Of a DNA stretch of 64,000 nt, positions 63,804 to 64,000 are shown one piece after another. This stretch comes from Escherichia coli (lineage in GTDB: Bacteria > Pseudomonadota > Gammaproteobacteria > Enterobacterales > Enterobacteriaceae), in NCBI RefSeq assembly GCF_030013205.1, contig NZ_CP122648.1. One strand, given 5' to 3'. The notes beneath the pieces are model-generated. The model worked only from the letters and a program-made list of their open reading frames with translations, made no database searches and was not told the DNA's origin. How positions within the stretch are numbered: the stretch's first letter is position 1; each line of letters starts with the position of its first letter. A program made the position numbers and the translations under genes.

Positions 63804-64000
63804 TGTGCACAGAAAACCCCCAGCTAGGCTGGGGGTTCCGGAAAGCTTTCAGCTTTGAGCCAGTTATTAAAACCCCTTTTGATTTGTTAAAACACCTTGC
63901 GGTCTGGCAACTGCAAGTGTCAAACAAGAAATCAAAAGGGGGTCCCAATGGGGAACGAAAAGAGCTTAGCGCACACCCGATGGAACTGTAAATATCACAT
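63804..64000 (+). mobile_element. Left end of an IS200/IS605-family insertion sequence (truncated by the window edge)
   Basis: A Y1-transposase start (MGNEKSLAHTRWNCKYH) at 63948 is preceded by a perfect GC hairpin (cccccagc-tag-gctggggg, 63815..63837) typical of the IS200 left-end structure; the left boundary is approximate. Confidence 0.6.
63948..64000 (+). CDS. tnpA: IS200-type transposase TnpA (HUH/Y1 family), N-terminal 17 codons only
   Basis: ATG GGG AAC GAA AAG AGC TTA GCG CAC ACC CGA TGG AAC TGT AAA TAT CAC = MGNEKSLAHTRWNCKYH, matching the recalled IS200 TnpA N-terminus (MGDEKSLAHTRWNCKYHIVFAPKYRRQ) at 16 of 17 residues. Confidence 0.7.
   Translation, partial: MGNEKSLAHTRWNCKYH

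Follow-up and report, generated by a model that had tools for sequence, protein, structure and literature searches.

The DNA analyzed here, referred to as the window, is a 64,000-nucleotide stretch from Escherichia coli that ends shortly after cheW, the final gene of the motAB-cheAW operon. The cheW coding sequence (63243..63746, + strand; 167 amino acids) is intact; it is contained in the list of open reading frames and is annotated in E. coli ETEC4079, PT62, and HCP4S3_I4. Downstream of cheW, a terminator scan and DNA folding locate the native Rho-independent terminator of the gene, GAACCCGATGACCTGCGCATCGGGTTTTTTATT, which consists of a hairpin and a T-run (63772..63804, + strand). The 10-bp stem of this terminator occupies 63772–63798, corresponding to 5173–5199 of the 10.4-kb ETEC4079 locus L001 (window coordinates equal L001 coordinates plus 58599), and is followed by the T-rich tail TTTTTTATT, which extends up to 63804. 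The same hairpin is also found in the empty site of K-12, where the gap between cheW and tar measures 144 bp, close to the ∼150 bp given in the first-pass annotation of this DNA. In the window, the final five bases of the tail (TTATT) directly touch the left end of an insertion sequence (IS), for which this terminator served as the target.

The last 196 bp of the window (63805..64000, + strand), starting with GTGCACAGAAAACCCCC, represent the left part of a 711-bp IS200C element, the ends of which were set by comparing eight copies. The first-pass annotation had placed the start of the element at 63804, one base off our reading, and had pointed to a perfect GC hairpin and to the start of an open reading frame with the N terminus of an IS200 Y1 transposase, both of which are present. 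The left-end (LE) hairpin (AACCCCCAGC-TAG-GCTGGGGGTT; 63815..63837, + strand) was identified by pattern search and DNA folding (z = −5.2), features a perfect 10-bp stem with a 3-nt loop, and occupies nucleotides 11–33 of the element. The 29-nt stretch containing this hairpin had no match in 100 shuffled windows. In the IS200 of Salmonella, the equivalent repeat (nt 12–34) is a bidirectional terminator that blocks incoming transcription (PMC4513863). By analogy to the family, the LE hairpin would also be the subterminal hairpin that is bound by TnpA. The LE hairpin is directly preceded on its 5′ side by an A-run (GAAAA), as is the hairpin at the right end (RE) of the element (GAAAAA). The hairpin/guide rule of the IS200/IS605 family places the guide sequence, which determines where cleavage occurs, at the foot of the hairpin (PMC6006769), and both A-runs are putative guide sequences by this analogy.

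The LE hairpin is part of a leader (63815..63938, + strand) that matches the Rfam family STnc490 (RF01405), which comprises the 5′ UTR of tnpA with the antisense sRNA art200 on the opposite strand (PMC4513863). The match covers the full model (positions 1–124) and reaches 146.4 bits, with the gathering score of this family being 56 (E = 9.5e-32). Within and beyond the leader, a stem in which the Shine–Dalgarno sequence is buried is predicted at 63873..63941 (+ strand; RNA fold of −40.4 kcal/mol, z = −3.9); a long stem of this type is known from the 5′ UTR of IS200 at nt 69–138 (PMC4513863). The Shine–Dalgarno sequence itself (AAGGGGG) lies upstream of the tnpA start codon at 63948, and the first 17 codons of tnpA plus 2 nt, encoding MGNEKSLAHTRWNCKYH, complete the window (63948..64000, + strand). 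A scan of the interval for σ70 promoters returned no promoter-like site, and we therefore claim no outward-reading or hybrid promoter for the IS.

The window ends 53 nt into tnpA, and the remainder of the element was derived from the near-identical E. coli strain ETEC4079, which was isolated from a pig in Belgium. Positions 63600–64000 of the window are 100% identical to ETEC4079 (401 of 401 bases), and blastn reports 99.998% identity for positions 14000–64000. The sole difference over these 50 kb is a homopolymer (T8 versus T7) at 47847–47854, just upstream of yecH, which may be genuine variation or may stem from sequencing or assembly. With 99.998% identity and a single homopolymer difference, ETEC4079 is a sound proxy for the sequence beyond the end of the window.

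Directly after cheW, the RefSeq (PGAP) annotation of ETEC4079 features an “IS200/IS605-like element IS200C family transposase.” The element comprises 711 bp, and its right end, terminating with ...GGAGGATATTTATT, is located at L001 5916, equivalent to window position 64515. It contains tnpA alone (L001 5349–5807), without tnpB, and tnpA is its one annotated coding sequence (459 bp). The uninterrupted reading frame encodes a protein of 152 amino acids that aligns with positions 2–121 of the 121-residue Pfam model Y1_Tnp (PF01797; E = 4.4e-38). This TnpA carries the HuH motif (H61-I-H63) and Tyr-125, the residue that yields a catalytically dead IS200 TnpA when replaced with phenylalanine (Y125F; PMC4513863). 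The IS termini (GTGCACAG... and ...ATATTTATT) show no inverted terminal repeats by eye, and both ends possess subterminal hairpins. The RE hairpin has an 8-bp stem (z = −4.5 in the DNA fold), is followed by ATATTTATT, and scores as terminator-like on both strands in the terminator scan. Downstream of the IS, tar, tap, and cheR are intact and are followed by the first part of cheB, where the stretch ends. Modeled on ETEC4079, the sequence past position 64000 is predicted to reach the right end ...GGAGGATATTTATT and to continue with TCAGTTTCGCGG..., the σ28 promoter, and tar.

The look ∼1 kb downstream that the first-pass annotation had recommended therefore reveals, in ETEC4079, what it had anticipated, namely a complete IS200-family element with a full-length Y1 transposase and an intact tar behind it. 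The transposase identity of the segment is likewise supported by the 100% match to the annotated IS200C locus and by the STnc490 leader. A native cheW–tar spacer lacking transposase homology was rejected. The site is uninterrupted in 5,372 of 5,426 complete E. coli genomes. We conclude, with a probability of roughly 0.93, that the segment forms the left end of a full-length and apparently functional IS200C, which lies downstream of the cheW terminator and upstream of the tar promoter. IS200C has been catalogued before, its insertion after cheW is already annotated in RefSeq, and the element does not represent a new kind. That the source strain harbors merely a solo left end or a degenerate IS200 relic is very improbable: although the window stops at 64000 after 17 tnpA codons, so that completeness is not directly visible, 50 kb of it are one homopolymer base apart from ETEC4079, and all four carriers of the junction possess a full-length tnpA that encodes 152 amino acids, with the surrounding element measuring 711 bp in the three carriers read.

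Elsewhere in the window, the ETEC4079 annotation places an integrase fragment and a frameshifted DUF5503 pseudogene between fliE and yedL (∼24442–25865), which look like what is left of a degraded mobile element in flagellar region III. At ∼1965–3158 (− strand), an intact porin of 397 amino acids, annotated as “OmpC,” adjoins hchA near hprS. In K-12, this position is presumably taken by the porin pseudogene yedS.

The boundaries of IS200C were determined with conserved internal motifs of the IS as anchors in eight copies at seven sites, which are located downstream of cheW (in three strains), ccmH, cspE, or htpG or in the vicinity of ompC. All eight copies span 711 bp, from GTGCACAG... to ...GGAGGATATTTATT, and are near-identical to each other (0–8 differences). 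The RE hairpin is similar enough to the cheW terminator for MAFFT to misplace the empty site of K-12 against the right end of the IS. TTATT is found both at the left flank and at the 3′ end of the IS, so that the boundaries may slide by up to 5 nt. Removing the 711 bp from ETEC4079 in silico leaves a 399-nt sequence that at least 12 E. coli genomes among the matches listed contain over its full length with 100% identity. Excision of exactly 711 bp thus recreates a natural empty site, indicating a precise insertion without target duplication. Moreover, the exact allele of ETEC4079 also exists in unoccupied form, indicating that the insertion is recent in the ETEC4079 lineage.

The tar-tap-cheRBYZ operon counts as a well-characterized σ28 operon, and its regulatory fragment showed no detectable binding of CRP (PMC2859248). 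The consensus for σ28 (FliA), TAAAGTTT-N11-GCCGATAA (PMC2859248), has one exact match in the 10.4-kb ETEC4079 locus (L001 5945–5971). This tar promoter is positioned 29 nt past the end of the IS (L001 5916) and 31 nt before the ATG of tar (L001 6003). The promoter has a perfect consensus and is contiguous with tar, and the insertion point of the IS lies 29 bp upstream of the −35 element. The statement that the IS sits where the tar promoter is expected is not supported, and disruption of the promoter was rejected, as the promoter lies beyond the IS and is unchanged. Given that no binding of CRP to the tar fragment was detected (PMC2859248), no known upstream activator site is displaced from tar. 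The promoter now adjoins the RE hairpin with ATATTTATT, which replaced the closely similar cheW terminator hairpin with TTTTTTATT as its upstream neighbor; the cheW terminator itself is preserved at the left end of the IS.

The first-pass annotation had also raised the possibility that the IS separates tar and tap from upstream transcription or affects their expression. In favor of such a disruption or uncoupling, be it through a position in the promoter region or through blocked upstream transcription, the IS is indeed located inside the 144-bp cheW–tar gap at a short distance from the −35 element, the sequence further upstream has been replaced, and two more terminator-like hairpins have been added. 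We nevertheless regard this explanation as quite improbable. The intact σ28 promoter was retained with tar, and this operon is known as a σ28 operon without detectable CRP binding (PMC2859248). The two operons were already parted, because even without the IS, the native cheW terminator shielded tar from transcription of motAB-cheAW, and the new neighbor of the promoter mimics the one that it replaced. Finally, tar, tap, and cheR are intact in all carriers, as is cheB within the stretch covered.

Judged from the sequence, expression of the chemotaxis genes is most probably unchanged by the insertion, which is probably close to neutral for the host. A subtle effect on tar may arise from the exchange of what lay over 29 bp upstream of its −35 element or from the loss of residual read-through. 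The IS itself would be insulated from its surroundings by the terminator hairpin at its left end, a weak promoter, the stem that hides the Shine–Dalgarno sequence together with art200, and the RE hairpin that is terminator-like on both strands.

The insertion also affects C0465, an sRNA candidate from Rfam that lies within the cheW–tar gap on the minus strand. The 78-nt model of C0465 is not contiguous in the occupied site but is divided by the IS. Its 3′ (terminator) half remains next to cheW (63768..63805, − strand), where it was detected as a partial match to RF00116 (model positions 39–76) with 39.8 bits, just below the gathering score of 40. Its 5′ half is fused to the RE hairpin of the IS (L001 5882–5955, − strand), and this fusion scores 65.8 bits. 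The RE hairpin, which is followed by TTTTT on the minus strand, may accordingly serve C0465 as a substitute terminator. Overexpression of C0465 caused no motility or biofilm phenotype (PMC4606813), and the split of C0465 is therefore unlikely to matter.

Of the 5,426 complete E. coli genomes, the left junction and the right junction each recover an identical set of four, namely ETEC4079, PT62 (NZ_CP090448.1) and LP5-1 (NZ_CP101866.1), which are pigeon isolates, and HCP4S3_I4. The insertion is hence rare, which supports the value as a strain marker that had been ascribed to it. In HCP4S3_I4, the IS follows GGGTTTTTT instead of GGGTTTTTTATT, and ATT has moved from the left to the right flank. 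Such a shift of the junction, 3 bp upstream, is the pattern expected of an independent insertion. In ETEC4079 and PT62, the junction is located at the identical nucleotide, whereas the 40 flanking nucleotides next to the IS contain four SNPs, and the flanking genes are 1.6% apart versus 3 of 711 nt inside the IS. Among the carriers as a whole, the flanking genes diverge by 1.2–1.6%.

The shared junction nucleotide of ETEC4079 and PT62/LP5-1 and the close similarity of their IS copies would fit one ancestral insertion that was inherited by all four carriers. This scenario is improbable in view of the junction of HCP4S3_I4, which is displaced by exactly 3 bp, the divergence of the flanking genes and of the nucleotides next to the IS, and the presence of the exact ETEC4079 allele, unoccupied, in the at least 12 genomes listed. 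Instead, the cheW terminator was struck at least two times in the same orientation, with junctions 3 bp apart, and the flanking differences suggest that there were probably three insertion events.

The carriers differ in their content of IS200C. The chromosome of ETEC4079 has 20 matching places (the cheW locus included), and HCP4S3_I4 has 14. A search of the whole records of PT62 and LP5-1 (locus L002) detected no second IS200C left end besides the cheW/IS place, and the cheW copy appears to be the only IS200C copy of these two isolates. The tnpA of HCP4S3_I4 (L003 5343–5801) differs from the other copies by a GAT to TAT exchange that replaces Asp with Tyr in the YYVDTVG stretch, and the protein has its own accession.

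Every E. coli IS200C copy examined abuts a terminator hairpin followed by a T-run. Beyond E. coli, species-representative genomes were scanned for the exact 23-nt LE hairpin AACCCCCAGCTAGGCTGGGGGTT, which yielded 120 loci (L010–L129). The hosts comprise named isolates of Yersinia, Vibrio, Brenneria, Dickeya, Edwardsiella, Pluralibacter, Budvicia, and Tatumella, as well as metagenome bins labeled Mailhella, Oxalobacter, Bacillota, Peptococcaceae, Saccharibacteria, and others. Among 118 distinct left flanks of the IS200 group from many species, 93 (79%) are strictly terminator-like, as compared with 6 of 2,400 random positions (0.3%) and 270 of 2,384 T-tail-matched positions (11%) from the same loci. 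Most of the remaining flanks are imperfect hairpins when read by eye. A classifier that requires a tail of at least 3 nt after the maximally extended stem accepts 74 of the 118, which is an undercount since A:T pairs enter the T-tract. Overall, the left end abuts a terminator in about 80–90% of the 118 IS200-group insertions. The suggestion that the position right after the cheW terminator fits a known habit of IS200 is strongly supported by these numbers.

The flanks share a motif and a geometry. Thymine is found at positions −5, −4, −2, and −1 in 113, 98, 116, and 105 of the 118 flanks, respectively, which gives the consensus TTNTT, and the TTATT flank of the cheW site matches this consensus. 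The distance from the last G:C pair of the stem to the junction is 6–9 nt in 84 of 103 flanks. The right end of IS200C itself is organized like these targets, with a hairpin followed by 9 nt that end in TTATT.

In Yersinia pestis NCTC5923, head-to-tail tandem copies of IS1541 are located 710 bp apart (at 2661/3371 in L076 and 12605/13315 in L078), and at L075, L122, L076, and L078, the left end of the next copy abuts the right end of the prior one (hairpin plus ATATTTATT). In these tandems, the right end of IS1541 behaves as a target site. The scan also showed that the 23-nt hairpin AACCCCCAGCTAGGCTGGGGGTT is common to elements that differ in their first 10 nt (GTGCACAGAA, GTGCCCAGAA, GTGAAACGAA, GTTAAAAGAA, GTATAGAGAA, and GTATGAAGAA). 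This sharing suggests that either the hairpin is very strongly constrained or some of the metagenome-assembled genomes contain mis-binned contigs.

An association with terminators is already on record for this family. Odaert et al. are said to have proposed terminator-like stem-loops as hot spots for IS1541 in 1998. A preprint describes an enrichment of terminator-like sequences immediately upstream of IS200/IS605 elements and reads it as a context that limits transposase expression (10.1101/2025.07.22.666184). Our analysis adds the near-universal abutment, the TTNTT consensus, the 6–9-nt spacing, and the mimicry by the right end.

The position of these elements might reflect nothing but purifying selection, with TnpA targeting any TTNTT without recognition of a hairpin and only the insertions at harmless sites persisting. 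Neutrality is expected of insertions after terminators, the tetranucleotide of IS608 suffices as its target on single-stranded DNA (PMC5027513), and the published enrichment has been explained by expression-limiting context (10.1101/2025.07.22.666184). However, the abutment is exact and orientation-specific, strictly terminator-like flanks are far more frequent than among T-tail-matched controls (79% versus 11%), and the spacing is confined to 6–9 nt. In addition, tandem copies land at the right end of another copy, and the cheW terminator was struck twice in the same orientation, 3 bp apart. We thus consider selection as the sole cause unlikely, although selection against insertions elsewhere could contribute to the pattern.

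As a tentative alternative, to which we give somewhat less than even odds, we propose that IS200-group transposases use Rho-independent terminators as a structure-specific landing pad that mimics the right end of the element. The target would consist of a GC-rich hairpin and a 6–9-nt T-rich tail ending in TTNTT, similar to the RE hairpin with its ATATTTATT. Apart from this proposal, and by analogy to IS608 and ISDra2, TnpA would excise the top strand as a single-stranded circle, and this circle would reinsert 3′ of a TTNTT that is exposed on single-stranded DNA 6–9 nt after a hairpin. The A-runs 5′ of the feet of the LE and RE hairpins would serve as guide sequences in these reactions. We infer the guide/target pairing and the need for a target hairpin from this analogy and from the statistics of the insertion sites. 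In the related systems, the left end inserts 3′ of an element-specific tetra- or pentanucleotide, with the top strand on the lagging-strand template (PMC5027513). The GC skew of the 64-kb window is positive on the + strand (cumulative +0.25), which is modest evidence on the direction of replication, and the top strand of the IS at cheW is taken to be on the lagging-strand template on this basis.

Use of terminators as landing pads would also explain how insertions spare their surroundings. As the right end reads as a terminator in both directions, the displaced terminator would be rebuilt with every insertion, and the neighboring genes would be left undisturbed. At the cheW site, the right end would restore the hairpin for the antisense transcript C0465. 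As far as the literature was searched, we found no demonstration of a mechanism based on right-end mimicry.

In its transposase, gene content, ends, mode of insertion, target, and leader, IS200C exhibits the defining features of the IS200 group within the IS200/IS605 family, with the Y1 and HuH features read on the ETEC4079 copy. Like the IS200 of Salmonella enterica (PMC4513863), it possesses a single tnpA that encodes a Y1 HuH protein of ∼150 amino acids with Tyr-125, an LE hairpin/terminator at approximately nt 12–34, a 5′ UTR stem sequestering the Shine–Dalgarno sequence, and the STnc490/art200 region (146-bit Rfam match), and it shares the lack of inverted terminal repeats and of target duplication. 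Salmonella IS200 is quoted at 707 bp (Lam and Roth), whereas IS200C measures 711 bp with the boundaries used here. Furthermore, Salmonella IS200 is described as nearly dormant, in contrast to the multicopy IS200C with its 20 matching places in the ETEC4079 chromosome.

IS1541 from Y. pestis and Yersinia pseudotuberculosis agrees with IS200C in the LE hairpin (23 of 23 nt) and in the right end (...GGAGGATATTTATT), and the starts of the two elements (GTGCCCAGAA against GTGCACAGAA) were counted as alike. The IS1541 insertions that were read also abut terminator-like hairpins. IS1541 differs from IS200C in its host, its much higher copy number, and the head-to-tail tandem copies in Y. pestis; no tandem copies were seen at the E. 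coli IS200C sites examined. More distantly, IS608 from Helicobacter pylori and ISDra2 from Deinococcus share the Y1 HuH TnpA, the subterminal hairpins, the insertion of the left end 3′ of a short specific sequence without duplication, and the bias for the lagging-strand template (PMC5027513, PMC6006769). Unlike IS200C, both carry tnpB, and their targets, TTAC and TTGAT, are not tied to a hairpin. The target of IS200C, as deduced from the sequences of the insertion sites, is instead a T-rich TTNTT located 6–9 nt after the GC-rich hairpin of a Rho-independent terminator.

The insertion at the cheW locus is thus a rare and easily typed marker that is of little consequence locally. For annotation, the rule that IS200-group elements follow terminators helps to fix the boundaries of IS200 copies and to recognize terminators. 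If true, the use of terminators as a “self-sealing safe harbour” would explain both the tandem copies and the repeated strikes on one terminator. More generally, the landing of IS200-group elements after the T-tracts of terminators provides an example of a mobile element that chooses transcriptionally harmless sites.
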